Below, in pieces: positions 5,265-49,894 of a stretch of 51,727 nt of DNA (positions are counted from its first letter, which is position 1; the number at the start of each line of letters is the position of its first letter). Both the position numbers and the translations under genes were made by a program. This stretch comes from Candidatus Thalassarchaeum sp. (GTDB lineage Archaea; Thermoplasmatota; Poseidoniia; Poseidoniales; Thalassarchaeaceae): assembly GCA_022449945.1 (NCBI GenBank), contig JAKURM010000004.1, positions 1-51,727 on the forward strand, read 5' to 3'. Below the pieces are notes generated by a model that saw only the letters and a list, made by a program, of their open reading frames with translations, was not told the DNA's origin and did not search any database.

Positions 5265-5597
5265 TCACCTATCAATCATCAGAATTGCATCTGTCGGACA
5301 GGCTAGGACACATAGCTTACAACCAGTACACGGGTCTCTGAGAATCCTAGCCTTTCTGTTGACATCTACACTCATAATTGGGCTTGCCAGAGGGGTGTCG
5401 TAGAGCTCAATAGCATCATCATCGCATACAATCGTACACTGGTCACACCCAATACACTGTTCTTCCTTAACCCATGCAACAGCATCATCTCCACCCTTCA
5501 AACTAGCCTCTTCTTCAGCCTTCATAGAATTAAGGAGCCTCCTAATTCTTGCCTGTTCTACGGCCCTCCTTTCCAATAGGTCCGGTATCTCAGTCAT
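5265..5597 (-). CDS. 2[4Fe-4S] ferredoxin with N-terminal helical extension
   Basis: CIGCDQCTIVC and CTGCKLCVLACP motifs. Confidence 0.9.
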   Translation of the reverse strand: MTEIPDLLERRAVEQARIRRLLNSMKAEEEASLKGGDDAVAWVKEEQCIGCDQCTIVCDDDAIELYDTPLASPIMSVDVNRKARILRDPCTGCKLCVLACPTDAILMIDR

Positions 5598-5664: not shown

Positions 5665-8481
5665 CTAAGTCGACTTCGACTCTTCGATCTGTCTAGCTAG
5701 GAAACTCACAACGTCTAAAATTTCGAAGTCATGCCTTGGGTCTCCTTCGAACTTCAGGCATTCGAAGTGTGCTACGCACTTGGGGCATGTTGTCAGCATC
5801 ACATCTGCACCCGTAGCATTCACCTCGTCAAATCTCTGCAACCTTAGAGCACGGCTATTTTCATTACACGACATCATGCTAGAAACGCCACAACAAAGGG
5901 CATCTTCACCCGTATGCTCCATTTCGACTAGCTCGACACCATCTACCGCCCTGACCAAGTCGCGCGGCTCTTCGTAGATATTCATCTGCCTACCGAGTCG
6001 GCAAGGGTCGTGATAAGTCACAGTAACATCATTCTCGGTTCGTAGACTCATGTCAAATCCATTCTCTACTAGGAATTCTGTGGTATGCATAACCTTCATG
6101 TCGTCAAGTTCGTAGTCCAAGGCAAAGGTGCGGAAGCACTCTGCACACGATGTCACCAGAGTGTCTATCCCACTCTGTCCGAGCTTCTTCTGGTTGTATG
6201 CCTTTAACTTTTCAAACACCTCAGTCATTCCTTGCCACTTCTGATCATGCCCGCAGCACTTCAGGAAGTCCCTTCCTAGATATGTAACGGACTCCCCCAT
6301 CTCCTCGAAAATCGTGAATGCCGCGTTTGTGGTCTCTCCGAGGTCCATCTCACCATGATTGACATGGCTGAATATCATCTCTTGATCGATGTAGTCTACG
6401 CATCCTGGGTAGTAGCCAACGCTAGAATCCAGGGGATAGTCTTCTACAGAGATGAACGACTCATCTGCGTCTTCTTCGGCTTCAGCAGCGAGAACTGCTT
6501 GTAATAATGTGTGCGGAATCTCAGCAGCGGGAGGCCCTCCGACAACCAGATTCCTCCTGATGTCGATGTATGAGTCATAGTCAACCAGCTGTGGACATGC
6601 GTTAGTGCATGCGGTGCATGTTAAGCACGAGTACAATGGGACACCGTCATCCTCATTGTTCCATGTATTGTATATGATGTTCAGCTTGTCTCCAGCATTG
6701 AATAGCCTGACTGGACAAGCATCGTCGCACAGGTCGCATCCATAGCACTTGTTCATCTCCCATTCGTAACCCCTTGCCATGCTTCTCATTAGCATGAACA
6801 CAATTGCACCGACTCCTAGGCAAGGAATAAACATCGAATAGATTAGCTTGGCATCCAGACTCTTTGGGTTTTTGTGGTAGGTCGGGTTTTCCAGTGCAAG
6901 GGAGGCTAATTCTGTTAATTCCCTTGTACTATCGGCTCTCGCCAAAGTAGTCCCTTCTTCGGATAGTAGGAGGGGCTGGTAAGCAACAACCGAGAAGTCG
7001 GAAATCATCATGACGCTATCGTTCACTTCGCTGGATTTGGTGACGAACGTAACTGTGTATGATTGAGCCGAATCTAAGTAGATGGTTGCAGACTGGCACG
7101 ATGTTCCACTATTTTCCCACACTAGCTGTCCAGCCTCATCCGTTAGCACCAGGCTTTGTGTGTGGAGTCCAGCATTCCTGACTGTAGTTCTGAAATTGCA
7201 CGAAATATCAGCAGGAACTTCGGAGAGTCCTAGGTCTTCGACCATGAATGTCCTAGACTCTATGATTTCAATATCGCTAGCATCCTCTGAGCCATTATAG
7301 ATTACGTCATCTGCACCAATATTCCTGGAGGTAGATATATCGCTATGCCCATTAACCCCACTGAAGTCAATGATCGTTGACCTAGTCGGTTGGAAAACCC
7401 CCCAATTCGACCAGTATATCGCAGGCATGACACACCATTCGTCGTAGGAGTCGCCTTCGTGGATATCCTCCCAAACTGATAGTTGGCCGGAACTCTCGTA
7501 TGGCAGGCACTTGTCACCCCACTCATCCCAGACATTTCCTTTGTCTACATGGACAAGAGTGTCTGATGGCTGTCCTCTGATGCCATCCAATTCAACCAGC
7601 TTCGCCTCGTTCTGATACTCCCAGAATCCCATTGTCCCGAGTCCTCTCTGATTCCAGAAGCCATTTTCGTAGACAGGCCATGTTATTGCACATAGCAGTA
7701 CGCTAGCGACCAGTGAACCTACCGCAATCTGCCTTCCAAGGATTGGGGTTAATCTAGAACCCATGGGTCCAAGGAGGAACTTTCTCACCGAGAAATACAA
7801 GAGTGCAAAAACGAAAATTCCCGTCAGAACCCATGGAACTGCATTGAATACCTCTGCTGTCCACGGAGACTGCGTGCCGCATCTGAAAACCCCATGCGAG
7901 GTCCCCCAACAGTAGTCTGTTCGATTTTGTCCATACATTTCTAGGAAGATGTTTATCGAGAAAACTGAGATGAACCAAACGTGAGCAAGATATACTGCCC
8001 CAGCAGTAGCAAACCACGGATCTTCGACCCCCCTCTTCTCCCTCTTCCCAATGATGAAGGGGGGTAGTGCCAAGATTCCTACTGGGAGGCCAGTAATTAG
8101 CGCACCCCATACTCCTGCATTCCACGAGACGATCGGTTGTCCAAAGAACTCGCCTATTGGGCCAGCAGGAATGTCGAACTGAGGTAGGTATTCCCCCCAT
8201 CGGAGGTATCCATAGGAGAACAAAACATACCAGTCTGGGAAAACGAAACCAGCCTGGGCATATGGGTCAGCCGCATTGTGCAAAGGTGGGGGGATTATCC
8301 AAGAGTAGAATGCAATAACCATCATTATCGATGCGAAAATTATGGTGTCACGAAGTACCTCTGTTGGCCAGAATGCATGTCCGGTGAAAACCCTCCTCCT
8401 CTCATCTTCCCCTTCTAGTAGGCCTTCCTTTTCACTGATGTAGGTGTCAGCTATCCTTCCGAATCTTTCTATCATCCCCAT
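5665..8481 (-). CDS. Cytochrome b6f subunit IV-like domain fused to an extracellular domain and an HdrD/GlpC-like Fe-S CCG oxidoreductase
   Basis: N-terminal FWPxEV..PPPL..ADP..PDWY (Qo motif); C-terminal CYGCDLCDDACP and CLTCTACTNACP, plus two CCG domains (YYPGC..CCG..CAEC; YHDPC..CCG..CPKC). Confidence 0.85.
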   Translation of the reverse strand: MGMIERFGRIADTYISEKEGLLEGEDERRRVFTGHAFWPTEVLRDTIIFASIMMVIAFYSWIIPPPLHNAADPYAQAGFVFPDWYVLFSYGYLRWGEYLPQFDIPAGPIGEFFGQPIVSWNAGVWGALITGLPVGILALPPFIIGKREKRGVEDPWFATAGAVYLAHVWFISVFSINIFLEMYGQNRTDYCWGTSHGVFRCGTQSPWTAEVFNAVPWVLTGIFVFALLYFSVRKFLLGPMGSRLTPILGRQIAVGSLVASVLLCAITWPVYENGFWNQRGLGTMGFWEYQNEAKLVELDGIRGQPSDTLVHVDKGNVWDEWGDKCLPYESSGQLSVWEDIHEGDSYDEWCVMPAIYWSNWGVFQPTRSTIIDFSGVNGHSDISTSRNIGADDVIYNGSEDASDIEIIESRTFMVEDLGLSEVPADISCNFRTTVRNAGLHTQSLVLTDEAGQLVWENSGTSCQSATIYLDSAQSYTVTFVTKSSEVNDSVMMISDFSVVAYQPLLLSEEGTTLARADSTRELTELASLALENPTYHKNPKSLDAKLIYSMFIPCLGVGAIVFMLMRSMARGYEWEMNKCYGCDLCDDACPVRLFNAGDKLNIIYNTWNNEDDGVPLYSCLTCTACTNACPQLVDYDSYIDIRRNLVVGGPPAAEIPHTLLQAVLAAEAEEDADESFISVEDYPLDSSVGYYPGCVDYIDQEMIFSHVNHGEMDLGETTNAAFTIFEEMGESVTYLGRDFLKCCGHDQKWQGMTEVFEKLKAYNQKKLGQSGIDTLVTSCAECFRTFALDYELDDMKVMHTTEFLVENGFDMSLRTENDVTVTYHDPCRLGRQMNIYEEPRDLVRAVDGVELVEMEHTGEDALCCGVSSMMSCNENSRALRLQRFDEVNATGADVMLTTCPKCVAHFECLKFEGDPRHDFEILDVVSFLARQIEESKST

Positions 8482-8490: not shown

Positions 8491-9363
8491 TCAATGTGGC
8501 TCCGCAATTCCTTGTACCCAAACGATGAAGAGGTGGGCCAGAATAAGGGCCGTTACTATCACCGGTAGAACGAATACATGCAAGAAGTACATCCTAACCA
8601 CAGTCTGTCCCGTGAGAACGGTATCCCCAAAAAGTGCGTTAGCCATCCATTCCCCTATCAAGGGCGTGGCATTAGCCATGTTTATTCCAATCGTGGCCGC
8701 GCCAAACGCCAGACTATCCCATGGAAGTAGATAACCGGAGTAACCGAAAAAGATGGTGAAGAACATCAAAGCCACTCCAATTAGCCAGTTTAGCTCCCTG
8801 GGGTTCCTGTAAGCACCAGTGAAGTAAACCCTGCACATGTGTAGGAATACAGCTGCTACCATGAAGTGAGTAGTCCAGTGGTGAATTGAACGGATTATGT
8901 ATCCGAATGGTAACTCTAGCATAATGAATTCCATTGATGCGTATGCAGGAGTCGGGTCAGAGCTTAGGTCTCCCCCTGGGACATAGTAGAAGCCAAGAAT
9001 CGTCCCAGAAATTACCAGGATAATGAATGCTAGGAATGAGATCCCACCTAAGCAGTACAATGGATACCAATACCAAATAATCCTTAGTTTATACTTCTCA
9101 GCATGAGTTAGTGGCATTTGCCTGTGCATACTGTGGTAAGAATCCCGGCTCATGCCCCAATAGTCCTGGATCCGAAATCTAGTATCAAGCCAAGAGAATG
9201 CCCATAGGAAGGCCTTCTCTGCCAATCCCATACTTCCTGCGTTAGTTTCAACTGCCCTGAGGATATCTTTTCTCGGAATGTCATCCCTCTCCCTCCTTAG
9301 GGTGAATGCAACGATAACCACGACAATTGCTATGAAAATCCAAAGGAACCAGAACTGAATCAT
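8491..9363 (-). CDS. Cytochrome b6-like (split cytochrome b, N-terminal part)
   Basis: YCLGGI, IRSIHHW..FLHMCRV, PRELNW, GYLLPWD, FLHVFVLP..AHL; four heme-ligating His. Confidence 0.93.
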   Translation of the reverse strand: MIQFWFLWIFIAIVVVIVAFTLRRERDDIPRKDILRAVETNAGSMGLAEKAFLWAFSWLDTRFRIQDYWGMSRDSYHSMHRQMPLTHAEKYKLRIIWYWYPLYCLGGISFLAFIILVISGTILGFYYVPGGDLSSDPTPAYASMEFIMLELPFGYIIRSIHHWTTHFMVAAVFLHMCRVYFTGAYRNPRELNWLIGVALMFFTIFFGYSGYLLPWDSLAFGAATIGINMANATPLIGEWMANALFGDTVLTGQTVVRMYFLHVFVLPVIVTALILAHLFIVWVQGIAEPH

Positions 9364-9372: not shown

Positions 9373-10227
9373 CTACCCACAGAATGTGTACCAATCCTTG
9401 AAATCTGGGAGAGCCTCGATTGCATCGCCATTTACAATGAAGGGAATTAGTGGCATGCCATATGGGGCGGGCCCACCTGTCTTTTTTATTCCAATGAAGT
9501 CGAAGTCTTGTCCATTAGACCTGTTCCGAGCAGTGTTCTTCTCAATTACGGTAGGGTCATATCTACTGGAGTGACAGATACAGAAGAGCTTGTTTCCGCC
9601 CGAGTCAGTTCCACCCGGAAGCCAATTGTCTGCAGTGAAGTCATTGTTCACCAACTGCCATCCAGGTATACAACATAGATGCGGGCACCTGGAGAAAATG
9701 ATGATCATGTTGTCGTGAATTGAAAGCGAGGCAAACTCCTCTTTCTCTTCAATTTCATAACCAGAGCCTACGTATGCTCCGCTGGCCGTAACTCCATCCA
9801 TAAGTTGGAATCTCGGCTCGTTCTCACTCAGGGGCCTGTTCGTATTTTCTTCATGTGGTACGTAGACCGCGACAACAGGTAGTCCGGACCAAAGCCCTGC
9901 AGCAGCGGACATTCCCGTGGACGAATCGGCTGCTTCATCTCTGAATGCCTGCATGGTCATCGGTTGCTTATCCATATTCCCATACCATACTTCAGATCCC
10001 TTGGGTGCGTAGAAGAGTATAGCCTGATCCGAACCTCCCGAACTAGCCTGACCCATTAAAAATGAGGCAAAACCTACACTGCCTAGACTTGCCATGGTAA
10101 TCAGGCCGGCTGCCGTATTGAACGACATCCGCATGAATTCTCTTCGATCAACGAATCCTACGCCCTCTTTTGCCGAATCCTCATTTTCATGCAAAGGCCG
10201 TAGTTTGAATCTCCTAGCCATCATCAC
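9373..10227 (-). CDS. Rieske 2Fe-2S protein of a Rieske/cytochrome b complex
   Basis: Tat motif DRREFM followed by a TM helix; CPHLCC and CICHSSRYD boxes; GGPAP. Confidence 0.92.
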   Translation of the reverse strand: MMMARRFKLRPLHENEDSAKEGVGFVDRREFMRMSFNTAAGLITMASLGSVGFASFLMGQASSGGSDQAILFYAPKGSEVWYGNMDKQPMTMQAFRDEAADSSTGMSAAAGLWSGLPVVAVYVPHEENTNRPLSENEPRFQLMDGVTASGAYVGSGYEIEEKEEFASLSIHDNMIIIFSRCPHLCCIPGWQLVNNDFTADNWLPGGTDSGGNKLFCICHSSRYDPTVIEKNTARNRSNGQDFDFIGIKKTGGPAPYGMPLIPFIVNGDAIEALPDFKDWYTFCG

Positions 10228-10673
10228 ACCTCATATTTCTTCCATGCTTCTGGATCATTCCTTGTGATGTACTTGTTTCGCCTATGCTTTACTATGATTA
10301 CATCTGGTAAGACATACTTTAGGTACACGATTCCCATGATAATTAGGGTTAGAAGGGTCATTGCTAGGTTGAATGATAGTAGCTGCTGATCCCAGTGTTT
10401 GAATAGTCCATATGAAAGAGAGCCCGCCCAGAAAAGAGTCCAAAGAATTCCCCATAGTCCAACTAGTACGATCAACCAAGAGTCTCCTGACGGCGAAACG
10501 CTCGCTCTAACAATTGTTCCAGGCTTTGGTGAGTTGAATACACCATGATCAACTGCGGCCGAGTAAGACTCTTCAGAAATAGTGACATCTTCAAGTGCCT
10601 TGCGTGCGTCTTCCACGCTTACTTCTCCTGACTCGACTTGTCGGAGTAGGCGCATTACCACGTCGTCCTTCAT
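10224..10673 (-). CDS. Hypothetical membrane protein (2 TM) in the Rieske/cyt b operon
   Basis: 4-bp overlaps with both neighbours; short N-terminal helical hairpin plus two TM helices. Confidence 0.75.
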   Translation of the reverse strand: MKDDVVMRLLRQVESGEVSVEDARKALEDVTISEESYSAAVDHGVFNSPKPGTIVRASVSPSGDSWLIVLVGLWGILWTLFWAGSLSYGLFKHWDQQLLSFNLAMTLLTLIIMGIVYLKYVLPDVIIVKHRRNKYITRNDPEAWKKYEV

Positions 10674-11494
10674 AGTTGATCTCCCCTTCTAAGATGCTTT
10701 ATTCTCAGTTTTAGTAGATTACTCCGGCCAACATAATGTCTCGAGAATCCGTACCTGAGAAACAATCCACAGAAGATGATAACAAGCATTACTGCTGCGA
10801 ATCCTAGTAATCCTAGCCAGTGAGCTAGGAGCTCAGCACCCATGTGATGGAGATCTGTGTGCTCTTCCACTGGGGCAGGAGGGTTAATTTCACCATTGCC
10901 GGAGAATATCGTTCTGACCTTGCCGTTATCCGTCCCCTCATCAACACTGGCGGTAAGCCTATTCCACCTGTCTAGGTTTGACGGAGCCATATCGCCATTG
11001 ACAGCATTTCCAGCAACCCAGACAGTCATTGAACCCGATGATTCTTCCGGAGCAGTCCATACAATACTCCACTTCCTGTCAGCCGTGCTGGATCCAGCAT
11101 TGGTGTGCGTTAGGGTGGCCAGGTCACCCTCCCAGTTTTGAACCAGCCCTTCAAAACCATCTCCAGGTGAAAGTTCACCAGAGCTGACTCTCATCGAGAA
11201 TCCCCCAGTGTATGAATCAGCAGATATCTCAGGTCCACCAATCAATTGGATAATTAATTCATATTGCCCCCCAGCCTCGAATTGGTAGGGAAATCCATCT
11301 AAGATCACTGTAACTGAGTTATCCGGACTTTCAGAATGGCACGTGCATCCCGCTAGCGATACATCTCCTTGGTTATTGGCATCGCCACCAACTCCAGTGT
11401 GCAGTGCTTCGCTCGATCCAGCAAATATTGCAATTACAACCAACGTTGCCAAGTACTTTCGATGGGAAATCATTGTCTGTTTCTCACCTTCCAC
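10670..11494 (-). CDS. Secreted Reeler-like beta-sandwich protein with CxCH motif and C-terminal membrane anchor
   Basis: Signal peptide, GCTCH, Reeler-type Y.L.I..GGF..LTH..W..WTAP..GNAVNGD pattern, C-terminal TM helix. The true start may be a few codons downstream. Confidence 0.7.
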   Translation of the reverse strand: MEGEKQTMISHRKYLATLVVIAIFAGSSEALHTGVGGDANNQGDVSLAGCTCHSESPDNSVTVILDGFPYQFEAGGQYELIIQLIGGPEISADSYTGGFSMRVSSGELSPGDGFEGLVQNWEGDLATLTHTNAGSSTADRKWSIVWTAPEESSGSMTVWVAGNAVNGDMAPSNLDRWNRLTASVDEGTDNGKVRTIFSGNGEINPPAPVEEHTDLHHMGAELLAHWLGLLGFAAVMLVIIFCGLFLRYGFSRHYVGRSNLLKLRIKHLRRGDQL

Positions 11495-11541
11495 ATCAAA
11501 GTATATTGAGCCACAGAAAAGGGGGATATTAACGTTCCACC

Positions 11542-11560
11542 TCGGCCCCTACGGGGCCGA
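11542..11560. promoter_or_regulatory. GC-rich inverted repeat in a divergent intergenic region
   Basis: TCGGCCCC-TAC-GGGGCCGA, a perfect 8-bp stem. Confidence 0.4.
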
Positions 11561-11615: not shown

Positions 11616-11921
11616 ATGACGGGTCCCCAATGGAAGAATGTGTACAACCTGGCCGAAGAGCAAGTTGAAAAATTAGATTTGGCGGAGCAATTGATGGAAA
11701 TGATGCAATTATCTGAAGCCGAGAAGACACTAATTGAGATGTTGGAGGAAAACTCCGAGTGCGTGCCAGTTCTGAATATCCTCGGCCATCTGAATGGAAG
11801 ATATATTTCTGATTTCGAATCGGCCATCGAGTATTATGAAAAGGTGATATCCTTGGAGCCTGACAATGCCTGGGCTCGAGATGAAAGAAGGCGATACAAG
11901 AGATATCTCACCTATGATTAG
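11616..11921 (+). CDS. Tetratricopeptide repeat protein
   Basis: VLNILGHL..AIEYYEKVISLEPDNAWA matches the TPR consensus. Confidence 0.8.
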   Translation: MTGPQWKNVYNLAEEQVEKLDLAEQLMEMMQLSEAEKTLIEMLEENSECVPVLNILGHLNGRYISDFESAIEYYEKVISLEPDNAWARDERRRYKRYLTYD

Positions 11922-11956
11922 AACAAGATAATCTAGTAATTTACTGGCCGGGAGCC

Positions 11957-12862
11957 ATGGAAGAAGGAGCCATTGTCATCGTTGGTGTCGGTGGTATAGG
12001 GTGCGCTTGGTCCCAAAGAGCCCACTCACTCTGCCAGGACCTTGCTGAATTATTATTGGTCGATGCGGACGAATCTTCTTTTTCTTCCGATCATGAAGCC
12101 AATTGTCTGCATCTTGATGCAGCCGGCGATGCAAGGGGGGCAGCCGCCCTACCAAATCTCGCTGAACATAGGTTGAAAGAAGGGATGGGCAACATTCAGC
12201 ACTTCCTTGAGAGATCAGAATTGGTCATCATTCTCTCTGCCCTTGGCGGTGGAACGGGTTCGGGTGCCACCTCTGAGATTGCTGCAAGAGCCAGAGAATC
12301 TGGTAGCCTGGTTTTGAGCATCGTCGGACTGCCCTTTGCCGAACAACCTCTAAGGTGCGCAATTGCCGACGTGGCCCTTCCTGAAATCGAGCGGAACTCT
12401 CACCTTTGCATTAGGGTGAGCCTTGAGAGGCTTGCATGGCAGGCGAGATACCGAAACTCAGACTGGAAGATGGGTTCGGAGTGGATAGGCGAACTTATCG
12501 AGGGTTTGGTTACTACATTAGCCCGAGTAGGAAAGATAAATCTTGATCTGATGGATTTGAGAACAGTTATCGATCGACCTGGTAATGCCACTCTACTAGT
12601 TGGCACGGGTTCGACTGAGAACCCATCAGAAGTTGTTCGCATGGCCCGAGAGTCACCCATGTCTGAGATCGGTGTCGATGGAGCAAAGGGTTGCTTGATA
12701 CAGGTTGAGGGCGGTCCTGACATGACTTTGGCACACCTGGATGCAGTTTCAGAAGGTTTTGTCTCTGCACTGGACAGTGACTGCCAGGTAATTCTTGGAG
12801 CCCGGTCAAGTGACGATATGGCCGGAAGCCTAAGACTCGTAGCCGTAGTCAGTGGCCTCTAG
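11957..12862 (+). CDS. Divergent FtsZ/tubulin family protein
   Basis: VGVGGIG, GGGTGSG tubulin signature, INLDLMDL T7-like loop, GGPDMTL..ILGAR..VVSGL C-terminal domain. Confidence 0.85.
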   Translation: MEEGAIVIVGVGGIGCAWSQRAHSLCQDLAELLLVDADESSFSSDHEANCLHLDAAGDARGAAALPNLAEHRLKEGMGNIQHFLERSELVIILSALGGGTGSGATSEIAARARESGSLVLSIVGLPFAEQPLRCAIADVALPEIERNSHLCIRVSLERLAWQARYRNSDWKMGSEWIGELIEGLVTTLARVGKINLDLMDLRTVIDRPGNATLLVGTGSTENPSEVVRMARESPMSEIGVDGAKGCLIQVEGGPDMTLAHLDAVSEGFVSALDSDCQVILGARSSDDMAGSLRLVAVVSGL

Positions 12863-14118
12863 TCGATAAGCTCAATCGTATCTTCATCGGGTACTGTTTC
12901 CATCTCTAAACTAATTTCATTATTCTGTGGAACAATTTCCGAGATAGCTGCTTCCTCCATCATTCCATTGCTTCCGTCCGAACCAAATGTTTCAAAATCT
13001 TTAGTCGCATTTACTCTAATTCGAAATACTGCAATTGGTGTGATTCCAACAATTACTAATGCCGTCAGAATGTGACCGAATGCTGTGGTAGTCAATAGGC
13101 TTCCTTTCGAAAGAGCGGACAGAGAAGAAATGCTTCCTGCGTACACATATCCAAAACTAATCCCCCAGAAAACTGCAGACTGCCCCTGGAAAATCTTTAC
13201 GCCTTTCTTACTGTTCTTGTTTGCCATAGACCAGACGGCCAATAGGATTGTAATTGCCATTAGCAATCCTTCCTCAACAATCATTGATGGCGTAACTTCG
13301 TTAGAAAAAAAAGGCATCCTTCTCCATGCACTGAAAACGTGCCAACATGCGGTCAGAGAAAGAAGAAATGCGACCCTATCGGCAATGACCCCGTCGATTT
13401 CAGTCGATTTCCTGGAGGTAGAAGTAATCCTGTCCACTATGCCCATAATTGAACCGATCAATATCAGAAATAGAGCCCATGCTAGATGTTCACTTGTACT
13501 GATATTTGCGTAATCTCCTGCGTCGTAGCCAAACCACCAAATAATCGGGCAGAACAAAACAAGGATAGCAACAATTCTCAGTGCCGAATAACCAAATCCA
13601 ATTCTGCTAGGCCTAATCTTCTTTGAAACTCTAGTGCCATAAGTAGACAATCCGATAGCCAATGTAATCGCTTGGAATATTGACATCAATACGAAAATCA
13701 TTCCAAGTGCAATTGCAATCCTCCCGAGCCATTCTTCTGCTTGAGAAATGGTCACAAATGAGACTATAGCAGAAATGCAAACAATTGGAAACAATGTTGC
13801 AGCACCCTTCTTCCAATACGATTTTCCAATTACCCCCCTGCTCTGGTGATCTACTCTTAGTAGGATGCCACCAATCTTTGATGGCGCGAAAATTGCAGCT
13901 ATGCAATATGACAGTGACAGCGAAAGAAAAATGACGGCACCCCTTTCTTGGATTCCAAATATGTCCACTTTCATCATTACGTAGAGCAGCCCGGTAATTA
14001 TCATCATTGCAAGGAAATGCGGCAGAGTTGAGGGGCTGGCGAATGACTTGAGAAGCCCTGTAACAGACCGTTCATTGCCCCCAATTCCCCCTTCCATGCC
14101 TTCTGGGGGACCCACCAT
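12859..14118 (-). CDS. Hypothetical polytopic membrane protein
   Basis: 419 aa, about 10-11 hydrophobic segments, acidic tail. Confidence 0.75.
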   Translation of the reverse strand: MVGPPEGMEGGIGGNERSVTGLLKSFASPSTLPHFLAMMIITGLLYVMMKVDIFGIQERGAVIFLSLSLSYCIAAIFAPSKIGGILLRVDHQSRGVIGKSYWKKGAATLFPIVCISAIVSFVTISQAEEWLGRIAIALGMIFVLMSIFQAITLAIGLSTYGTRVSKKIRPSRIGFGYSALRIVAILVLFCPIIWWFGYDAGDYANISTSEHLAWALFLILIGSIMGIVDRITSTSRKSTEIDGVIADRVAFLLSLTACWHVFSAWRRMPFFSNEVTPSMIVEEGLLMAITILLAVWSMANKNSKKGVKIFQGQSAVFWGISFGYVYAGSISSLSALSKGSLLTTTAFGHILTALVIVGITPIAVFRIRVNATKDFETFGSDGSNGMMEEAAISEIVPQNNEISLEMETVPDEDTIELID

Positions 14119-14146: not shown

Positions 14147-14449
14147 ATGGCACGACTTAACAAGTCTGCTCGCGGAAAGCACAGGTGGGTGGGCATCGAG
14201 TCATCATTGCCTTGCTCAATTAAGAATGTGAAGGAAGAACTCAACAATATATCGGGTAAGATACAATGGAAATTACTTGATTTCCATATTTGGGCAGATT
14301 CTGCAACAATGATAGTCAAAGTACCCCTCGAAAGACATCATTTTGCCCTCGACAGAATTAACGAGATTGATGGAAAATCAACAATCACAAGCTCCGGAAA
14401 ACTTCGACTTGTTCGACATAGGATTTCTGAAAAACATAAATTAGAGTAG
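14147..14449 (+). CDS. RNase P protein component, Pop5/Rpp14 family
   Basis: RGKHRWVGI..IVKVP..TITSSGKLRLVR resembles the Pop5 R.RY..SGTI pattern. Confidence 0.65.
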   Translation: MARLNKSARGKHRWVGIESSLPCSIKNVKEELNNISGKIQWKLLDFHIWADSATMIVKVPLERHHFALDRINEIDGKSTITSSGKLRLVRHRISEKHKLE

Positions 14450-15793
14450 CCAATTTGTGCCATCCAAGTCGCAAATTTGTGATAATCCATTCCCGCAAAA
14501 GATCTCCATTTCGCCGTCCTTGCTTAGTCCAACGGGCCTCCTTGGGACACCGGCGATTTCCACAATTACTCCTTCTGAAAGAACTCTGGACAGTTTTCTC
14601 CATGAAAGATTTCGGAGCTCTTCCATATTTGGCAATTCAAACCACTCATTGTCTTCTAAGAGGGATGAAACTGCCGTATCAAGGATTCTGAAAACATCCA
14701 TTGCATCAATATCGCCCAACGTTTCCTCCCATCCCCCTCCTGAAATCTCGCCTTCTTCGAACCGGGTCCTGTTGGCTCCAAAACCAATTCTAACATCATC
14801 CGAATCACTCGACTCAATTAGCACCCCCCCAATCTTCCTTCTTTGTTTGGTAATTATGTCATTGGGCCACTTCATCTCAGCGTTTAGGGCATCACTGAGG
14901 ACTGAGCCGATACTTGTTTGTAGAAGGCCGGGGGAAATCGAATTGAATAACTCAGCATCCAGTTTCCATGTACTGGACAAACCATCCTTCATTGAAATCC
15001 ATTTGGTCCCCCTTCTTCCCCTACCATTCCTTTGAGAAAATGATAATACCCTCTGCCACCCTATATTTTCAAGTTTCTTTGCCTCGTCCATCGTGGAATC
15101 GCAAATGTCCAGAATTGTCGGTTTTACTCCCTGGCCGGTCTTCCAAAATCCAATTACTTCTAGACGCTCATTCCCGATTCTTTCGTAAGCAATTGAACGA
15201 GCAGACCACCCCATTTCTTTCCAGACCGAAGGATTACTTTCACTGATCGGATCAGTCCTCATCAGAATCAAAATCAACAAATCCCTCTTCCTTTTTTCGG
15301 AGTCAATTTCTAGGCTTCCGAGAAGCTTCGCCCCCCACCCCCCATTTCCAACATCGTTAAGCGCCACCGCCTCCATCTCCGGAATTTCTGACTCATGCCC
15401 CATCTCTAGATAGGGTATATTCCATACTAAAAGCTCTACATCACTAGGTATTTCCATCCCTTCCCCAATCCCAGACTCATGAACTTCTACTAACGCCGAA
15501 AGTCCGTGATTTTCCACATTCCCCCTCGTTGCTGAGACTGCATATGGATTCACATCACAACTAATCACATTCCAACCAAGGCTGGCAAGCTGCATTGTCA
15601 CTGCACCCGAACCACAACCAATCTCCAATGCTCTGCCATTTCTTTTCTTTAGTTTTGAAATAGCATCACAAAGCAGCAATGTGTCCTCCCTAGGTGGATA
15701 GACCGTCTCAGGAACCACTAGTTCGCATTCGCCGATCCCGATTATTGGAAACTTACATATCTTACTCGGGATTTCAATATGATACGAATCCAA
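14441..15793 (-). CDS. Fusion: HemK2/MTQ2-like SAM methyltransferase plus biotin--protein ligase
   Basis: N-terminal VYPPREDT, LEIGCGSG, DVNPYA, WNIPY; C-terminal DSTMDE, QxxGRGRRG..W, KWPND, KIGGVLIE. Confidence 0.88.
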   Translation of the reverse strand: MDSYHIEIPSKICKFPIIGIGECELVVPETVYPPREDTLLLCDAISKLKKRNGRALEIGCGSGAVTMQLASLGWNVISCDVNPYAVSATRGNVENHGLSALVEVHESGIGEGMEIPSDVELLVWNIPYLEMGHESEIPEMEAVALNDVGNGGWGAKLLGSLEIDSEKRKRDLLILILMRTDPISESNPSVWKEMGWSARSIAYERIGNERLEVIGFWKTGQGVKPTILDICDSTMDEAKKLENIGWQRVLSFSQRNGRGRRGTKWISMKDGLSSTWKLDAELFNSISPGLLQTSIGSVLSDALNAEMKWPNDIITKQRRKIGGVLIESSDSDDVRIGFGANRTRFEEGEISGGGWEETLGDIDAMDVFRILDTAVSSLLEDNEWFELPNMEELRNLSWRKLSRVLSEGVIVEIAGVPRRPVGLSKDGEMEIFCGNGLSQICDLDGTNWLL

Positions 15794-15968: not shown

Positions 15969-16042
15969 GGGCCTGTAGCTTAGTCAGGTAGAGCGCCGGG
16001 CTTTTAACCCGGTGGCCGGGGGTTCGAATCCCCTCAGGCCCG
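15969..16042 (+). tRNA. tRNA-Lys (anticodon TTT)
   Basis: GGGCCTG/CAGGCCC acceptor stem, CCGGG-CTTTTAA-CCCGG anticodon arm, GGTTCGAATCC T arm; no encoded CCA. Confidence 0.97.
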
Positions 16043-16092
16043 CCTGCTTGCTACTCAGGCCCTCGCTTTTCTGGAACCCGGGAGGCGAAATA

Positions 16093-16680
16093 ATGGCCGT
16101 AAAAAGCTCCACTAAGAAGAGACTTGTCGAACTAGGAATCGCGGAAGAGCACGCACACAGATTGGCCGACGACGCCAATCTAGATGCAATCAAGAGGATG
16201 TCAAGGGAACAGGTTGCAAAGAAAGTTGGAATCGAGGATAGCGATTCGGCTCTTGATCAAATAATGGGTGTAATCAGTGAACATGTAGGTTCCCGTAAGA
16301 GGACTAAGAGTAACCGAATTACCATTTCCCGCAAGGCCCTTCTCGAGGAAGATATTCCCAGGGGGGATTTCAGGTTCAATGTACTCAATCATTTCCTTGT
16401 CCCTCATCACGAACTGGTTCCAATCGAATCGGAGGAAACTGAGTTAGCGCCATGGGGGCTAAAGACTTCCGACGTTCACGGAAACAACCGGCTGGCGAAG
16501 GAGCTTCTTCCAAAAATACTGATCACCGATCCTGCAATTCAGGCCATAAAAGAAATGGAGGAGTTGGAAAACGACGAGCTCCCGGCGGGTTGGCTGACGA
16601 ACCGAGTCGTCAGAATCCGAAGGTATAGTAGATCGGCCGGCAGCTCGGTTGCATTTCGCTTGATTGTAGAGAGCGCATGA
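16093..16680 (+). CDS. rpoH: RNA polymerase subunit H (Rpo5) with N-terminal extension
   Basis: HFLVPHHE..LPKILITDPA..VVRIRRYSRSAG..FRLIV; ATG at 16093 after GGAGG; first gene of the rpo operon. Confidence 0.9.
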   Translation: MAVKSSTKKRLVELGIAEEHAHRLADDANLDAIKRMSREQVAKKVGIEDSDSALDQIMGVISEHVGSRKRTKSNRITISRKALLEEDIPRGDFRFNVLNHFLVPHHELVPIESEETELAPWGLKTSDVHGNNRLAKELLPKILITDPAIQAIKEMEELENDELPAGWLTNRVVRIRRYSRSAGSSVAFRLIVESA

Positions 16681-19600
16681 TTAGGGGTGAAAAAGTGAAG
16701 GAGATAGTTGAGAGTTATTTCAAGCAAAGAAGTCTGGTTAATCACCAGTTGGCGTCATACAACGATTGCATTCCCATTGGAGATGGGAAGGAAAGCCGAA
16801 TGGAGTCCATTGTCAGGAATATCAAGATTGGGAGCGATGAGCATTTTGATGATGACGAGGGTGGCTTGGTTAAACTCGATCTTCTCGACAAGGAGATTGT
16901 TGTAAGGCTGAAGAATTTGAGATTAGGGCGCCCCACGATAAAGGAGGCCAATGGGGCTGAGCATCCCGCTACTCCCCTAGAGTGCCGAATCCGAAAACTT
17001 ACTTATTTTTCTCCAGTATACCTCGACTTCAAGATTTATCGTGACGATTTACCTCCCTCTCCAGGCGCAGAACTTGGTTACCTCGAGGAGAAGGGAGTCC
17101 ATATTGGCAACTTGCCGATAATGGTACGCTCTGCTAGGTGCAACCTTCATGCCGGACATATCGATGAGAATCGGAGACTCTCCCCCGAGTCCTCGGATGA
17201 AGACGCTGAGCGCTACCAGAAGCTCCTTAGAAAATCCGGTGAAGATCCACTAGATCCGGGTGGATATTTCATCATCAATGGCACCGAAAGAGTCCTAATC
17301 TCGATGGAAGATCTGGCTCCGAACCGAGTAACAGTTGAGAAGAACAAGAAATATGCACATGAGACGCAGGTCGCAAAAATCTTCTCCCAGAAAGATGGAG
17401 TTCGGAAGCCCCTGAACGTCGAGAAGAGAAGGGACGGGATGTTAATGGTCAAGATTCCCAGTGCCGGAACCACACCAGTTCCATTGGTGTTACTCATGCG
17501 AGCATTGGGTGTTGAGAACGACAGGGAGATTTTCGCTTCAATTGCAGGTCCACCCGAGGCAATGAAATACACTGTTGCCAACCTAAATGATCTAAGGGAC
17601 AACGACGAATATGGGGTCGATACGTGCGATGAAGCCCTTGGTTGGCTTGAGAAGAAATTCGCCGCCGGCCAGCAGAAGGAATACCGTGAGTCACGGATCC
17701 AGAACCTGCTAGATAACGAACTCCTTCCTCATTTGGGTTCTACCTTCGAAAATAGAGAGAAGAAGGCCATTTTCTTGGGAAGAATCGCACGGCAAGTTCT
17801 GGAAATGGCAATTAAGGACAAGGATCCCAATGACAAGGATCACTATGCCAATAAGCGAGTAAGACTAGCAGGAGACCTGGTAGAGGATCTGTTCCGTGTC
17901 AGCTTACAGCAACTTGCCCGGGATCTAAAATATCAGTTGGAAAGGCATCACAACCGAAAGAGGGAGCTTCGAATATCCTCCTGCCTTAGGCCAGACGTGC
18001 TTACCACCAAAATCATGCATGCCCTTGCGACAGGAAACTGGGTGGGTGGTAGATCGGGTGTTAGCCAGCTGCTGGATCGTACTACATACCTGTCTGCACT
18101 ATCCCATCTGAGGCGAGTTACCAGTCCTCTAGTTCGGAGCCAACCACACTTCGAGGCTAGGGATCTCCACCCAACGCAATGGGGTCGACTTTGTCCAAAT
18201 GAGACGCCGGAAGGACAGAATTGCGGCCTTGTAAAGAACGGTGCCCAGATGATAGACATTTCTGAAGAAGTTCCCGAAGCAGACGTCAAAGATTTGCTAA
18301 AGGAGGCTGGAGTTAATGACAATCCAGATGGTTGGGCGGATGGCTCAAGGATTCACGTTAATGGGGATATATTCGGACTACACAAGAGGCCACACAAACT
18401 AGTGAGCCAATTCAAGAGAAGAAGACGCTCGGGAAGGATAAGGCCAGAAGTCAGCATAGGTAATGACTTGGAGAACAGTGATGTCTTCATCAATTCTGAT
18501 CGCGGTAGTATGCTACGTCCCCTGCTAATCATAGAACACGGCAGCCTTCAGATAACAAAGATGCATTTGGAGGGACTGAGGTCCGGTGAAATTTCATTTT
18601 CCGACTTAGTCTCAGGTGGAGTAATTGAATGGGTCGATGCCGAAGAAGAGGAAGATCTTCTGATTGCACCCAGGCCGTTTGACCTGCCGGCAGAGTCACC
18701 TAGGAATAAGAGGCCGATTAACCCATCCAAGGTTCAGTGGACAAACCTTGGAGAAATGGGCAAGGACTCTGACGGAAAGCCCGTACCACTATCTTACGCG
18801 CAATTGATTGCCGAGGTACAGATGCCCAATGGAGAGACGAAGAACGAGAAGTTCAGAGTCCCGCTGAACTACTACCAAGAGAATATTGATGCCCTAAAAA
18901 GGAAAGAAAAGAAAGGCAACACTGTACTAGTATACACCCATGTGGAGATTGACCCCCAACTAATTCTCGGAGTCTGTGCTTCTCTGGTTCCATACCCGGA
19001 ACACAATTCCACTCCGCGTGTAACCGGTGGAACTGCCATGGTAAAGCAAAGCCTTGGGGTGGCCAGTGCGAACTTTCGCCTTAGACCCGATACCAGAGCC
19101 CACGTGATGCACTACCCACAGAGGTCAATTGTTGGCACTCGTGCTATGCAGTCCACGAACTTCGACCAAAGGCCAGGCGGGCAAAATTACGTTGTCGCCA
19201 TAGTTAGCCATCACGGTTACAATATGCAGGACGCCGTAATTATGAATCGCTCTTCGGTGGAGAGGGCCCTAGGAAGGTCAGCATTCGTTCGTACATACAA
19301 TGCCGAGAATAAGAGATTCCCAGGAGGGCAGGAAGAGAGGATTGAGATCCCAGGAACCGGATTAGATGAGATCAAGGGACTCAAGTCATGGGATTCATAC
19401 TCGCACCTAGAGAGGGACGGCCTACCCGTTCCAGAGGAGGAACTGACCAGCGAAGAGGGAGGCCGATCAATTCTTGTTGGCAAGACCAGCCCTCCAAGAT
19501 TCCTCGAGGAGGCTCATGGGGCGTTTTTGCAAGCGCAAGAGAGACGAGAGTCATCCATGCTTGTTAGGCATGGGGAGAAGGGCTGGGTAGACAATGTATA

Positions 19601-20414
19601 CGTCACCGAATCTCTCGATTCCGGTAGACTAGTAAGGATTACACTTCGAACAAACAAGATTCCGGAGCTTGGAGATAAGTTTGCAAGTAGGCACGGTCAG
19701 AAGGGAATCATTGGCAGGCTCGTAAACCAAGAGGACATGCCATTCACCGAGGATGGAGTAATCCCTGATCTTCTGATAAATCCTCATGCAATTCCATCTA
19801 GGATGACTGTCGCACACGTATTGGAGATGATAGGTGGCAAGGTCGGCTCAATGGAAGGTAGGAGAATTGACGGTACCGCCTTCACAGGTGAGAAAGAAGA
19901 GTCACTAAGATCCGGCCTACTCCGAAACGGACTAAAGCATACTGGGAGGGAACAAATGATCAACGGAGAAACCGGAGAAAACTTCCCTGTTGATACCTTT
20001 GTAGGGGTGATATACTACCAGAGACTACACCACTTGGTAAGCAGCAAACTGCATGCCAGAAGCAGAGGAAGGGTCCAGATTCTAACTAGGCAACCAACGG
20101 AGGGAAGGGCTAGGCAAGGTGGCCTCAGGTTTGGTGAAATGGAGAGGGACTGCCTCATCTCACACGGGGCATCGATGGTGATCAAAGACCGACTTCTTGA
20201 TGAATCCGATGGCTGGAACCTCATGGTTTGCAATACTCCCCGTTGTGGGCATGTAGCCTACTACGACTGGAAGCGAAGAACCAGTGTTTGCCCGGTCTGC
20301 GGAGATAGGGCCGATGTCCATTCCGTACAGACTTCGTATGCATTCAAACTACTCCTGGATGAGATGAAGAGCTTGGGTGTTGCCATGAGGCTGGAACTGG
20401 AGGATCGAAGATGA
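16677..20414 (+). CDS. rpoB: RNA polymerase subunit B (unsplit Rpo2)
   Basis: GGYFIINGTER, ETPEGQNCGLVKN, GDKFASRHGQKG, RFGEMERD, C-terminal Zn ribbon. Confidence 0.98.
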   Translation: MIRGEKVKEIVESYFKQRSLVNHQLASYNDCIPIGDGKESRMESIVRNIKIGSDEHFDDDEGGLVKLDLLDKEIVVRLKNLRLGRPTIKEANGAEHPATPLECRIRKLTYFSPVYLDFKIYRDDLPPSPGAELGYLEEKGVHIGNLPIMVRSARCNLHAGHIDENRRLSPESSDEDAERYQKLLRKSGEDPLDPGGYFIINGTERVLISMEDLAPNRVTVEKNKKYAHETQVAKIFSQKDGVRKPLNVEKRRDGMLMVKIPSAGTTPVPLVLLMRALGVENDREIFASIAGPPEAMKYTVANLNDLRDNDEYGVDTCDEALGWLEKKFAAGQQKEYRESRIQNLLDNELLPHLGSTFENREKKAIFLGRIARQVLEMAIKDKDPNDKDHYANKRVRLAGDLVEDLFRVSLQQLARDLKYQLERHHNRKRELRISSCLRPDVLTTKIMHALATGNWVGGRSGVSQLLDRTTYLSALSHLRRVTSPLVRSQPHFEARDLHPTQWGRLCPNETPEGQNCGLVKNGAQMIDISEEVPEADVKDLLKEAGVNDNPDGWADGSRIHVNGDIFGLHKRPHKLVSQFKRRRRSGRIRPEVSIGNDLENSDVFINSDRGSMLRPLLIIEHGSLQITKMHLEGLRSGEISFSDLVSGGVIEWVDAEEEEDLLIAPRPFDLPAESPRNKRPINPSKVQWTNLGEMGKDSDGKPVPLSYAQLIAEVQMPNGETKNEKFRVPLNYYQENIDALKRKEKKGNTVLVYTHVEIDPQLILGVCASLVPYPEHNSTPRVTGGTAMVKQSLGVASANFRLRPDTRAHVMHYPQRSIVGTRAMQSTNFDQRPGGQNYVVAIVSHHGYNMQDAVIMNRSSVERALGRSAFVRTYNAENKRFPGGQEERIEIPGTGLDEIKGLKSWDSYSHLERDGLPVPEEELTSEEGGRSILVGKTSPPRFLEEAHGAFLQAQERRESSMLVRHGEKGWVDNVYVTESLDSGRLVRITLRTNKIPELGDKFASRHGQKGIIGRLVNQEDMPFTEDGVIPDLLINPHAIPSRMTVAHVLEMIGGKVGSMEGRRIDGTAFTGEKEESLRSGLLRNGLKHTGREQMINGETGENFPVDTFVGVIYYQRLHHLVSSKLHARSRGRVQILTRQPTEGRARQGGLRFGEMERDCLISHGASMVIKDRLLDESDGWNLMVCNTPRCGHVAYYDWKRRTSVCPVCGDRADVHSVQTSYAFKLLLDEMKSLGVAMRLELEDRR

Positions 20415-23400: not shown

Positions 23401-23506
23401 CCAGTTCGAGTACGGCGAGGATGGCATTGATCCTGCAAGGAGCCGTAAGGGAAGCCCATTCGATGTCAACCAAGTCCTGAACGATGCGCTTGGAGGTGGT
23501 AAGTGA
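20411..23506 (+). CDS. rpoA1: RNA polymerase subunit A' (Rpo1N)
   Basis: [11 protein letters not shown] catalytic motif, [30 protein letters not shown]. Confidence 0.98.
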
Positions 23507-25086
23507 TGGTTGTAAAGAGTGCCACCAAGAAGAAACTGATGGACTTGGGAATCGAGGAGGAGTACGCTCACAAGTTGGCAGATGACAAGAAGTGGGATGA
23601 CGTCAAGGGCCTCTCTCCAGGGCAGATTGCACAGATTTGTGGCATAGACTCTGGGACGTCCCAAAGAATCCACGAGGTTATGGCAAACTCTGCTAAGTCC
23701 AGTCGGGCTTCTACAGCGACATCTGAGAAGACGATTGTTCGCAGAAGAACAGTTTCTAGGTCTCGTAGAATGAAGAGGTCCCTTCCCCTGGAGGAATATG
23801 ACCAAGAGTCTAAGATTATCCAAATCGGACGTGACGTGGACTCAGATGACGAGATGTACCTAAAGCTATCAAAGGCTGCTAGTGATGCTAATGCTGGCAT
23901 GACTCCTAGAATGCTAGACGATCTTGTCAAGGGCTTGGAGAAGAGGGGAGAGAAGAAGTTTACCGATGCGAAGGCAAGGAAGATTATCCAGTCCGCCATG
24001 AGCTTTGCCAGTGAGTCCAAGGCAGTACCATACGAGGCTGTGGGAATCACAAGAGCCCAGTCTATTGGAGAACCAGGTACACAAATGACCATGAGGACAT
24101 TCCACTACGCAGGAGTAGCAACGGTGAATGTGACCCAAGGTCTTCCTCGAATTATCGAAATAGTCGATGCTAGGAAAGTCCCTAAAACACCAACAATGAT
24201 CATCTATCTTGATGAACAGAACGCAAAGAAAAAGCCTCTTCGGACAAACGAGAAATTAGTCCGAAATATAGCAGCTGCACTCGAGACCACAACAGCCACT
24301 GATATTGCTGCCATCGATGTAGACGTGGCCCAGAGGAACATCAGCCTACAACTGAATAATAGCAATATGAAGCTGAAAAAGATGACTGGCGCTGAGGTTC
24401 GTGATAAACTATCAAGGGCATTGAGGCTATATGTTCAGGCAGACAATGATGACCGCCCCAAGTCACTTCGTATTATTCCTGGAGTCACAAAGGAAGATGA
24501 TCTGGCGTCCTTAGCCTCTGATCCGCCAACCTATACCGCACTACTCCAACTAGAGGACAAGATCAAGAAACTCAGACTTAAGGGACTTCCTGGAATTTCC
24601 AGGGCTAACGTCCAGGGCCCGGTTGCTGAAACAGGTGAGTATTACATCTCCACTATTGGCTCCAATCTTTCTAAAGTGAGTGAGTTTGCCGGAATAGACA
24701 AATCAAGGACATACACAAACAACATCAACGAAATTCATGACTACCTAGGAATCGAGGCTGCTCGGCAGGCGATTATCAACGAGATGTGGGATACTCTTGA
24801 GGGAGCCGGTCTAGATGTAGATGTCCGTCATCTGATAATGGTCTCAGACGTTATGACAAATGGTGGCGAAGTTCGGGCCATTGGTCGGCATGGAGTTAGC
24901 GGTACTAAGCACTCAATTCTTGCACGTTCAGCCTTCGAGGTGACCGTCACGCACCTCCTTAAGGCTGGGATTATTGGCGAGAGAGATATGCTTTCTGGAG
25001 TAACCGAGAATATCATTGTTGGCCAGCCAGTAGCTTTGGGTACGGGAAGCGTTGAACTGTATTACATCCCTGAGGCAACTAATTGA
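23506..25086 (+). CDS. rpoA2: RNA polymerase subunit A'' (Rpo1C) with long N-terminal extension
   Basis: [47 protein letters not shown]. Start is ATG 23506 or GTG 23503. Confidence 0.97.
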
Positions 25087-43770: not shown

Positions 43771-43801
43771 CTCTATTTGGGAATCACGGTTCGATACACC
43801 T

Positions 43802-45325: not shown

Positions 45326-45329
45326 TAAA

Positions 45330-46052: not shown

Positions 46053-46076
46053 CAATATGATTAGTATCACTTCTAA

Positions 46077-46152: not shown

Positions 46153-46196
46153 GGCTTTCATCGCAGTAAACATTCACACAAGAATGATTCTGAGGC

Positions 46197-49854: not shown

Positions 49855-49894
49855 CATCAGAATGGTTCTTGTCCGTGTGCTTAGTGGGACGTTC

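Follow-up and report, generated by a model that had tools for sequence, protein, structure and literature searches.

A reeler-type CxCH protein as a candidate electron-receiving subunit of a b6-type Rieske/cytochrome b complex in Marine Group II archaea

Among described redox proteins, cytochrome f (PetA) comes close in layout to the protein reported here: both have a signal peptide, a Cys/His motif some 20 residues into the mature chain, a β-rich ectodomain and a single C-terminal transmembrane (TM) helix. In Sulfolobus, the SoxLN-CbsAB system is said to include an archaeal non-c1 counterpart, the outward-facing, anchored haem protein CbsA (cytochrome b558/566), which serves a Rieske/cytochrome b complex; reportedly, CbsA is of a different size from the protein described below and carries haem b instead of a Cys-linked haem. 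Auracyanin, halocyanin and sulfocyanin are likewise outward-facing, membrane-tethered one-electron carriers, found in organisms without soluble cytochrome c. The Marine Group II (MGII) archaea, which are uncultured and belong to the commonest archaea in surface seawater, have cytochrome b and a Rieske protein without canonical bc1 genes, together with proteins termed 'MGII specific (complex III)', according to passages of PMC6336850. Here we describe a 51,727-nt stretch of MGII DNA (Candidatus Thalassarchaeum sp., assembly GCA_022449945.1, contig JAKURM010000004.1, positions 1 to 51,727 of the forward strand; hereafter the window), in which the first gene of a respiratory operon encodes a 267-residue protein with a Cys-Thr-Cys-His motif (the CxCH protein). 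This gene is a concrete candidate for the electron-receiving subunit of the MGII complex III. It is fairly likely that the CxCH protein serves as an extrinsic redox subunit of a b6-type Rieske/cytochrome b complex, whatever its cofactor; the full proposal, that it is anchored, faces outward and carries as its redox centre a haem at Cys45-His46, is a tentative one, plausible but short of probable. The protein is probably a functional analogue, not a homologue, of cytochrome f/c1.

The window belongs to a Marine Group IIb (MGIIb) archaeon, whose best genome matches are metagenome-assembled genomes (MAGs) of Thalassarchaeaceae/Poseidoniales with at most 92% protein identity. The coding sequence of the CxCH protein lies on the minus strand at 10670..11473 (267 aa from the ATG at 11473, stop codon at 10670-10672, as in the open reading frame (ORF) list), and all of its features given below are on that strand. 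The ORF itself is present as 10670-11494, with a GTG at 11494 as an in-frame upstream alternative start; the ATG appears the likelier start, because 267 residues fit the lengths of the homologues (267-277 aa in most of the 120 close homologues among the matches listed) and a GGTGA is found about 10 nt upstream. A Sec-type signal peptide is predicted from the translation for residues 1-23 (11405..11473); it ends in SEA, with the cleavage site placed by the -3/-1 rule and not by a predictor, and the translation of this region contains no twin arginine. As to the mature N-terminus, whose α-amino group is the sixth haem ligand in cytochrome f, a glycine 3-4 residues past the predicted cleavage site is invariant family-wide. 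The choice-of-anchor V (reeler-like) ectodomain, delimited by the match to NCBIfam NF041895 (residues 15-174, 10952..11431), is about 150 residues long and has C43 and C45 as its sole cysteines. These belong to G42-C43-T44-C45-H46 (11336..11350), about 20 residues past the predicted cleavage site. Further along the ectodomain are His123 of a T-H-T motif (11105..11107), a candidate second ligand of the site, and N156-A-V-N-G-D161 (10991..11008), the most conserved block of the ectodomain core. The residues H209-H210-M211 (10841..10849), within the stretch EEHTDLHHMG..AH, stand just before the TM anchor (approximately residues 217-240, 10754..10825, from hydropathy and the genome-scan motif A-[HY]-W-[LV]-G...F), which is followed by a basic cytoplasmic tail of 27 residues (241-267, 10673..10753) that is nearly invariant in MGII. 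The signal peptide, the GCTCH near the predicted mature N-terminus and the single C-terminal TM helix had been described in a first-pass annotation of the window, made from the letters alone, and all three are seen in the translation.

Conservation of the Cys-His site was followed in an alignment of 105 relatives of the CxCH protein (A1) and in a hidden Markov model (HMM) built from it, which matched 282 of 293 collected proteins, 269 of them spanning the motif. Cys-His is present in every one of the 269 sequences, and GCxCH in 120 of 120 close homologues among the matches listed, so that the motif is not a matter of chance. About 119 of the 269 are close relatives from MGII; evidence independent of them comes from the representatives at 50% identity, of which 120 out of 150 among the matches listed carry CxCH by plain pattern, the remainder being mostly fragments. 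The spacing of the first cysteine is one residue in 254 sequences (Cx1CH), two in three (Cx2CH, the canonical CxxCH), four in five (Cx4CH), six in one (Cx6CH) and eight in three (Cx8CH), and three sequences have a single cysteine (xCH). Across the family, C45 and H46 never change; C43 may be replaced or stand elsewhere, and the residue between the cysteines varies freely. Haem-c sites are known to vary naturally in this way, with Cys-His kept throughout and the first cysteine variable in its spacing or dispensable. In the relative P0293, the canonical CxxCH falls exactly on the motif in an hhalign alignment. A plain disulfide, which the first-pass annotation had weighed against its own idea, is excluded in at least two relatives, P0147 and P0227, because the cysteine of Cys-His is the only one in the mature protein and there is no second to pair with; the third sequence without the first cysteine, P0167, looks frame-shifted. 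An iron-sulfur site in the CxCH protein, whether Rieske-like or Tat-exported, was set aside, as there is no twin arginine and only a single Cys/His box.

Few other polar residues are conserved throughout the family: besides C43, C45 and H46 these are Y71, H123, N156 and D168. Position 123 is histidine in 96 of the 105 A1 sequences, glutamine in five, phenylalanine in two, serine in one and a gap in one, and all 11 sequences of a second alignment (A3), a non-MGII, anchored subset of the TM-anchored subfamily, have histidine there. Both sequences with F123 also have leucine in place of N156, a paired change that hints at contact between residues 123 and 156. The nearest described parallel to the site itself is in Kuenenia, where Ferousi et al. 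are said to have reported in 2019 (J Biol Chem) a functional CXCH haem-c site, the one such report, in a tetrahaem cytochrome, with the same single residue between the cysteines followed by histidine. That site is reportedly one of several in an α-helical multihaem protein, in a bacterium with haem-maturation genes, whereas the contracted CxCH here is the rule of a whole β-fold family (254 of 269) and occurs in archaea reported to be without cytochrome c families. Cytochrome f differs as well, with CxxCH in place of C-T-C-H, and the haem of the CxCH protein is putative.

The genomic setting links the CxCH gene to a Rieske/cytochrome b complex. The gene heads an operon in which five genes follow, with 4-nt overlaps or 9-nt gaps down to the gene of a 938-aa protein, and the 80 MGIIb loci all share the gene order, each within the reach of its contig. 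Gene 2 was found in all 80, the Rieske gene in 78, the cytochrome b gene in 72, the 938-aa gene in 67 and a ferredoxin gene in 60; the two loci without a Rieske match (L029 and L034) end inside or just past gene 2. The loci are all close relatives, retrieved with a scan pattern that sat in the anchor motif, so that their synteny shows stability and not independent co-occurrence. The place of the gene at the head of the operon, as first read, is borne out by this order and the tight spacing, as well as by a conserved upstream element (see below), and the company of Rieske and cytochrome b genes, which the same annotation had suggested looking for, is seen in most of these loci. The Rieske protein (9373..10227, minus strand) is divergent and has an RR signal; its match to TIGR01416 (5.8e-9) is below the cut-off, and its cluster boxes CPHLCC (CxHLCC) and CICHSS are invariant among orthologues. 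The 290-aa cytochrome b6-like protein (8491..9363, minus strand; Pfam Cytochrome_B, 3.7e-41) finds its best PDB match in 6rqf_I (8.9e-42), among cytochrome b6 chains of b6f complexes. Its C104 aligns with Cys35 of spinach cytochrome b6 (LYCLGG versus FYCLGG) and is invariant in 17 orthologues. Cys35 is the attachment residue of haem ci, and C104 would fit a covalent haem ci on the inner side.

The 938-aa protein (5665..8481, minus strand) is a fusion. Its membrane part is subunit IV-like and has PDWY; there follow an outside domain of about 260 residues, a TM helix, and a cytoplasmic module with two [4Fe-4S] sites and two CCG domains. The subunit IV-like part matches Cytochrom_B_C with an E-value of only 0.16, and the outside domain gave no family match. 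The cytoplasmic module is HdrD/TfrB/GlpC-like (PDB 9ojn_A, 8.7e-22), and such a module on the inner side of a b6-type complex is unusual. Taken together, the operon has the marks of a b6f-type complex, namely a split cytochrome b (b6 and a subunit IV-like part), the haem-ci cysteine and a Rieske protein with both boxes; in being encoded alongside a Rieske protein and a b6-type cytochrome that retains this cysteine, the CxCH protein again resembles cytochrome f. The ratios dN/dS were 0.046 for the ectodomain (14 usable pairs), 0.040 for the anchor, 0.035 for the Rieske protein (12 pairs) and 0.008 for cytochrome b, all rough values with dS near saturation and few usable pairs.

The membrane anchor supplies a second line of evidence. 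In 119 MGII sequences, 62 columns are at least 99% conserved, and 35 of these fall in residues 209-266; anchor and tail are thus the most conserved part of the CxCH protein in MGII, above the ectodomain. This conservation argues for fixed contacts in a complex, and the near-invariant tail of 27 residues suggests a cytoplasmic partner. The His/Met-rich juxtamembrane stretch that the first reading had singled out is present, and H209 and M211 are invariant across the 119 MGII sequences; they are not kept in other anchored relatives, and a family-wide metal site at this stretch was rejected as the conservation is confined to MGII. The juxtamembrane/TM motif of the window protein is found in 26 of the 105 A1 sequences, and a profile of the non-MGII anchored proteins retrieved five proteins (P0288-P0292) that consist of a signal peptide, a blue-copper domain and the same anchor. 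P0292 matches Pfam Copper-bind with 36.6 bits (cut-off 21.2), and P0289 is near the cut-off. The profile of the five matches auracyanin A (7.6e-4), a type-1 copper protein (1.6e-3) and rusticyanin (6.3e-3) in the PDB, and Cys-x2-His-x(2-4)-Met motifs are seen by eye in the copper domains.

The anchors of the two kinds of protein are homologous. The anchor of P0288 is 75% identical to that of the reeler-type P0137 over 53 aa (E 5e-25), and those of P0292 and P0153 match with an E-value of 1e-15. In a profile-profile comparison of the cupredoxin and reeler proteins, the anchor is the only part that aligns (58 columns, probability 99.5%, E 2.4e-23). The nearest anchors of P0288 and P0292 are reeler-type, while those of P0289 and P0290 are of other cupredoxin-type proteins, so the types are interleaved, and the mean anchor identity between the types (cupredoxin-reeler, 45.0%) is no lower than that within the reeler type (42.8%). 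Because the anchors are homologous and interleaved, one membrane module, as judged from these alignments, bears the CxCH domain in some proteins and a known one-electron carrier in others. The exchange of cupredoxin and reeler domains on one anchor is a natural experiment, and it ties the CxCH protein to auracyanin, halocyanin and sulfocyanin in that domains of their kind share the family's anchor; the ectodomain of the window protein differs from them in lacking a cupredoxin signature, the anchor alone being homologous. Fusions are further hints of an electron-transfer role: the relative P0242 consists of the domain, a TM helix and the first 35 residues of a haem-copper oxidase subunit I, where the sequence ends, and P0151 joins the domain, by way of three CARDB domains, to a cupredoxin.

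On these grounds we propose the following. The CxCH protein would be exported by its Sec-type signal peptide, and its β-rich, reeler-type ectodomain would lie on the outer face, kept in the complex by the TM helix and the cytoplasmic tail. A one-electron redox centre around the invariant Cys45-His46 would take an electron from the Rieske cluster and then hand it to a mobile blue-copper protein or to the terminal oxidase. The centre would be a haem, thioether-linked at Cys45 and usually also at Cys43, with His46 as axial ligand and His123 as a candidate second ligand, which would make it a contracted CxCH haem-c site on a non-cytochrome fold. Two features lead us to prefer a Cys-linked haem, namely the Cys-His signature and the variants with canonical CxxCH. 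Related Thermoplasmatota would fill the same anchored position with a cupredoxin, and halocyanin may act in the manner of plastocyanin. The order of the genes, the family to which the protein belongs, its conservation, the common anchor and the fusions are observed; what we infer here is the presence of the protein in the complex, its redox role and its haem. If a haem is bound, the protein would represent a new fold for c-type cytochromes and the first family with contracted CxCH as a rule, and would point to an archaeal route of haem attachment not known so far; if copper is bound, electron-transfer domains with copper would gain a new kind; and with either cofactor, a widespread domain would gain its first function.

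A bolder form of the haem proposal is rather doubtful: the domain would be an unrecognised β-sandwich monohaem c-type cytochrome with contracted CxCH as its normal site, the missing cytochrome f/c1 of MGII, exchanged for a blue-copper domain in related archaea. An unrecognised c-type cytochrome without a recognised attachment system implies a new way of attaching or exporting haem. Purely as speculation, gene 2 may help in haem attachment or export. This gene (10224..10673, minus strand), whose start overlaps the stop of the CxCH gene by 4 nt, encodes a DUF7318-like protein of 149 aa whose N-terminal part is cytoplasmic and which has two TM helices. Helix one is Trp-rich, with W74, W78 and W82 invariant, and leads to a WDQQ, equally invariant, on the outer side. 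DUF7318 was matched by 17 of 17 gene-2 orthologues with E-values up to 0.01 (best 1.8e-6), and the window protein, at 25.5 bits, misses the cut-off of 27. To our knowledge, DUF7318 is a family of unknown function; the match suggests a haloarchaeal counterpart. The relative P0171 is a weak case of a fusion of the reeler-type domain with DUF7318: its Pfam match has an E-value of 0.0032, and the MGII gene-2 profile fails to align with the tails of P0171, P0169 and P0188.

Several observations weigh against the haem proposal or parts of it. First, bis-His c-haems usually have a low potential, and His123 is not universal (96 of 105). The Rieske centre of the operon is in contrast probably of high potential, as the S-Y of its box is given as a high-potential signature in part of PMC4122944. 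Second, the known haem-attachment machinery may be missing in the host, because cytochrome c Pfam families are reported to be absent from all Thermoplasmatota genomes examined (PMC9287336, in the section at hand) and because, among surveyed archaea, predicted cytochromes c came with the cytochrome c maturation (CCM) system (PMC4429474, as excerpted). No cytochrome c assembly families were found among the scanned ORFs of the window. Third, halocyanin could take electrons directly from the Rieske protein; genes for halocyanin and plastocyanin are highly transcribed in Thalassarchaeaceae MAGs, according to passages of PMC9723583. Fourth, 79 of the 105 A1 relatives are without the anchor motif, and many members of the family are fused to adhesin-like Ig, PKD or CARDB domains. 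At last, the cupredoxin-bearing proteins P0288-P0292 come from short contigs, and the MGII anchor is only 19-23% identical to theirs.

The surroundings of the operon offer no other obvious acceptor among those searched for. The window has no CxxCH-containing ORF of at least 80 aa, and no recurrent CxxCH gene was found within about 8 kb of the operon in 81 sources (1.16 Mb, 6153 frames; the motif turns up in 14 frames, whose lengths are unrelated). A cupredoxin-ectodomain HMM gave no match within about 8 kb in the same 81 sources, the HMM being built from five sequences only and of limited reach. In Lutacidiplasmatales, Thermoplasmatales and Lunaplasmatales, complex IV adjoins blue-copper proteins, and Poseidoniales are not named in that passage of PMC9287336. 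PMC6461757 makes no mention of cytochromes. The haloarchaea pose a stated paradox of haem-stained proteins without candidates (portions of PMC4429474 and PMC8305020). For archaea without cytochrome c, haem ci could alone give a haem-stained band in such complexes.

That the CxCH protein has the same place and role with copper or another metal as its centre, held by Cys45, His46 or His123 and sometimes Cys43, is unlikely, although parts of the evidence suit it. The putative ligands Cys, (Cys), His, His are conserved as a set, a type-1 copper domain can take the place of this domain on the common anchor, and a copper site would need no haem-attachment machinery, which fits the lack of cytochrome c families cited above. 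The one-Cys and two-Cys variants recall type-1 and CuA-like sites, and the H/Q/F variation at position 123 recalls that of the axial ligand of blue-copper proteins. The geometry of coordination is against it: adjacent Cys and His hardly bind one metal ion, although a multinuclear site is conceivable. A precise binuclear site is in turn hard to square with a first cysteine spaced by 1 to 8 residues, and the canonical CxxCH of three relatives points away from copper. Nor do the searches favour it: the window protein has no cupredoxin HMM match in Pfam or NCBIfam and no type-1 copper motif, and the PDB at E-values up to 10 returned reeler domains only, with no cupredoxin and no known copper site.

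The window protein is a clear member of the NCBIfam family choice_anch_V (NF041895; 83.7-83.8 bits, cut-off 42), which was matched by all 105 A1 sequences, with PGF-CTERM in four; it is below the cut-off of the related MXAN_6652 model NF041894 (43 bits, cut-off 200). The family is large, with 632 clusters at E-values up to 1e-3 in a search of 1.84 billion representatives and 393 confirmed places of the domain in a scan of species genomes; tblastn with five family members against plasmids gave nothing useful. Our literature search found no described function for NF041895 and nothing that links the choice-of-anchor V or reeler-type domain to respiration. From the other members, the branch of the window differs in having its own TM anchor and a respiratory operon. 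The reeler fold itself has modest support. Pfam Reeler (PF02014) is found in four of the 105 relatives at E-values up to 1e-3 (best 3.1e-7), P0268 scores 24.3 bits against a cut-off of 21, the A1 profile matches three F-spondin reeler-domain chains in the PDB (E 0.011-0.019) and nothing else credible, and the automatic name of an ESM Atlas cluster agrees. The reeler-type β-sandwich of the first-pass annotation stands to this extent, on a sequence basis, and the window protein itself has no Pfam match at E-values up to 0.1. The likeness to eukaryotic reeler domains (F-spondin and the reeler-DOMON-b561 ferric reductases) is distant and concerns the core of the β-sandwich, with the GCxCH segment lying N-terminal of the part aligned with F-spondin.

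Neither the protein nor the 105-sequence profile found chains of cytochrome f, cytochrome c1, DOMON domains or cupredoxins in the PDB at E-values up to 10, and the Apocytochr_F families are unmatched. By these searches, the CxCH protein is not a relative of cytochrome f but a member of the reeler/choice-of-anchor V family; the analogy drawn in the first-pass annotation holds for the layout and not for descent, and its interpretation as a whole is partly supported.

The family leaves room for a non-redox subunit or surface domain, one that would act in assembly, stability, halocyanin docking or binding of an outside ligand, with Cys-His as a structural or ligand-binding detail, while the Rieske protein reduces halocyanin directly; we consider this improbable. 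Reeler domains known so far are binding modules, as in F-spondin, and most members of the family bear surface-sorting anchors or Ig-like, PKD or CARDB domains. Two fusions have long spacers: in P0151 three CARDB domains stand between the domain and the cupredoxin, and in P0207 five Ig-like domains stand between it and a DUF4079 membrane domain, the latter with a weak match to Ni_hydr_CYTB (E 0.0082) and presumably related to b561-type cytochromes. Direct electron transfer is doubtful in both because of the long spacers, which lends weight to a non-redox role. CYBDOM proteins likewise place an outside reeler domain on an electron-transfer membrane protein, comparable to P0207, and the role of the reeler domain in the reeler-DOMON-b561 proteins is stated to be unknown in the pertinent part of bioRxiv 10.1101/2023.09.01.555970; the high expression of halocyanin in Thalassarchaeaceae (PMC9723583, in part) is in line with direct reduction. 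The Cys-His found in 269 of 269 sequences, including proteins with no other cysteine, speaks instead for chemistry and not for packing. A purely structural domain is also at odds with the replacement of the ectodomain by a cupredoxin on the same anchor, with the fusion of P0242 to oxidase subunit I, and with the strong purifying selection on the ectodomain.

An extracytoplasmic haem or copper receptor or chaperone for the assembly of the complex or the oxidase, not a permanent carrier, is very improbable: the small, anchored, β-rich ectodomain with Cys/His near the mature N-terminus recalls C-terminally anchored copper chaperones, the gene is co-encoded with haem- and iron-sulfur-bearing subunits and P0242 carries its oxidase fusion, but there is no likeness to known chaperone families in Pfam, NCBIfam or the PDB, a swap for an electron-transfer cupredoxin on the same anchor would not be expected, and the near-invariant anchor and tail suggest a fixed place in the complex.

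The last gene of the operon, after a 67-nt gap, encodes a 110-aa RnfB-like ferredoxin with two [4Fe-4S] sites (5265..5597, minus strand; TIGR01944, 8e-13, below the cut-off), which hints at ferredoxin input to the complex. It may be the orphan RnfB noted in MGII genomes without the rest of Rnf in passages of PMC6336850. Upstream of the CxCH gene, between the divergent genes at 11473 (minus) and 11616 (plus), a conserved element (11526..11559, minus strand) consists of a 17-nt GC-rich palindrome (11543-11559) and, after it, a TATA-like TTAATAT (11526-11532). All 12 aligned MGIIb loci retain the element, some of them with the palindrome changed at two symmetric positions, and its sequence fits a promoter before the CxCH gene; the palindrome could be a regulator site or a hairpin. 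Scans for bacterial promoters and terminators gave counts at or below the shuffle expectation and were uninformative.

Among the loci, L067 (PAQG01000017.1) is titled as an Acidimicrobiaceae bacterium but has the complete MGIIb operon (67-86% identity); mis-binning of this contig is probable. Among the relatives, P0105 (437 aa) combines the reeler-type domain with a Rieske domain; it is a single sequence from one contig with a Gly-rich joint and a different Rieske type, and was set aside as a probable chimera. A dedicated search for longer fused forms gave three matches only, joined to PKD or Ig-like domains.

Head-to-head with the operon, 11616-12862 on the plus strand encodes a TPR protein of 101 aa and a short FtsZ-family protein of 301 aa, the latter with 126 bits against TIGR00065, far below the cut-off of 295; the two genes are syntenic in 79 and 77 of the 80 loci, respectively. 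They are followed by a 419-aa multi-TM protein without Pfam or NCBIfam match (12859-14118, minus strand), syntenic and fast-evolving (34-77% identity, 38 of 80 loci by tblastn), and by a 450-aa fusion of HemK/MTQ2-type methyltransferase and biotin-protein ligase domains (14441-15793, minus strand). Two metabolic gene sets are found at 40098-47916, 3-1945 and 49826-51412 of the window: a histidine-utilisation set (formiminotransferase, cyclodeaminase, urocanase, histidine ammonia-lyase and an amidohydrolase) and parts of methylmalonyl-CoA mutase (B12-binding subunit, MeaB and large subunit) adjoined by a carboxyl transferase. The RNA polymerase genes rpoH-B-A'-A'' lie at 16012-25086, with tRNA-Lys at 15969 and tRNA-Val at 46077.

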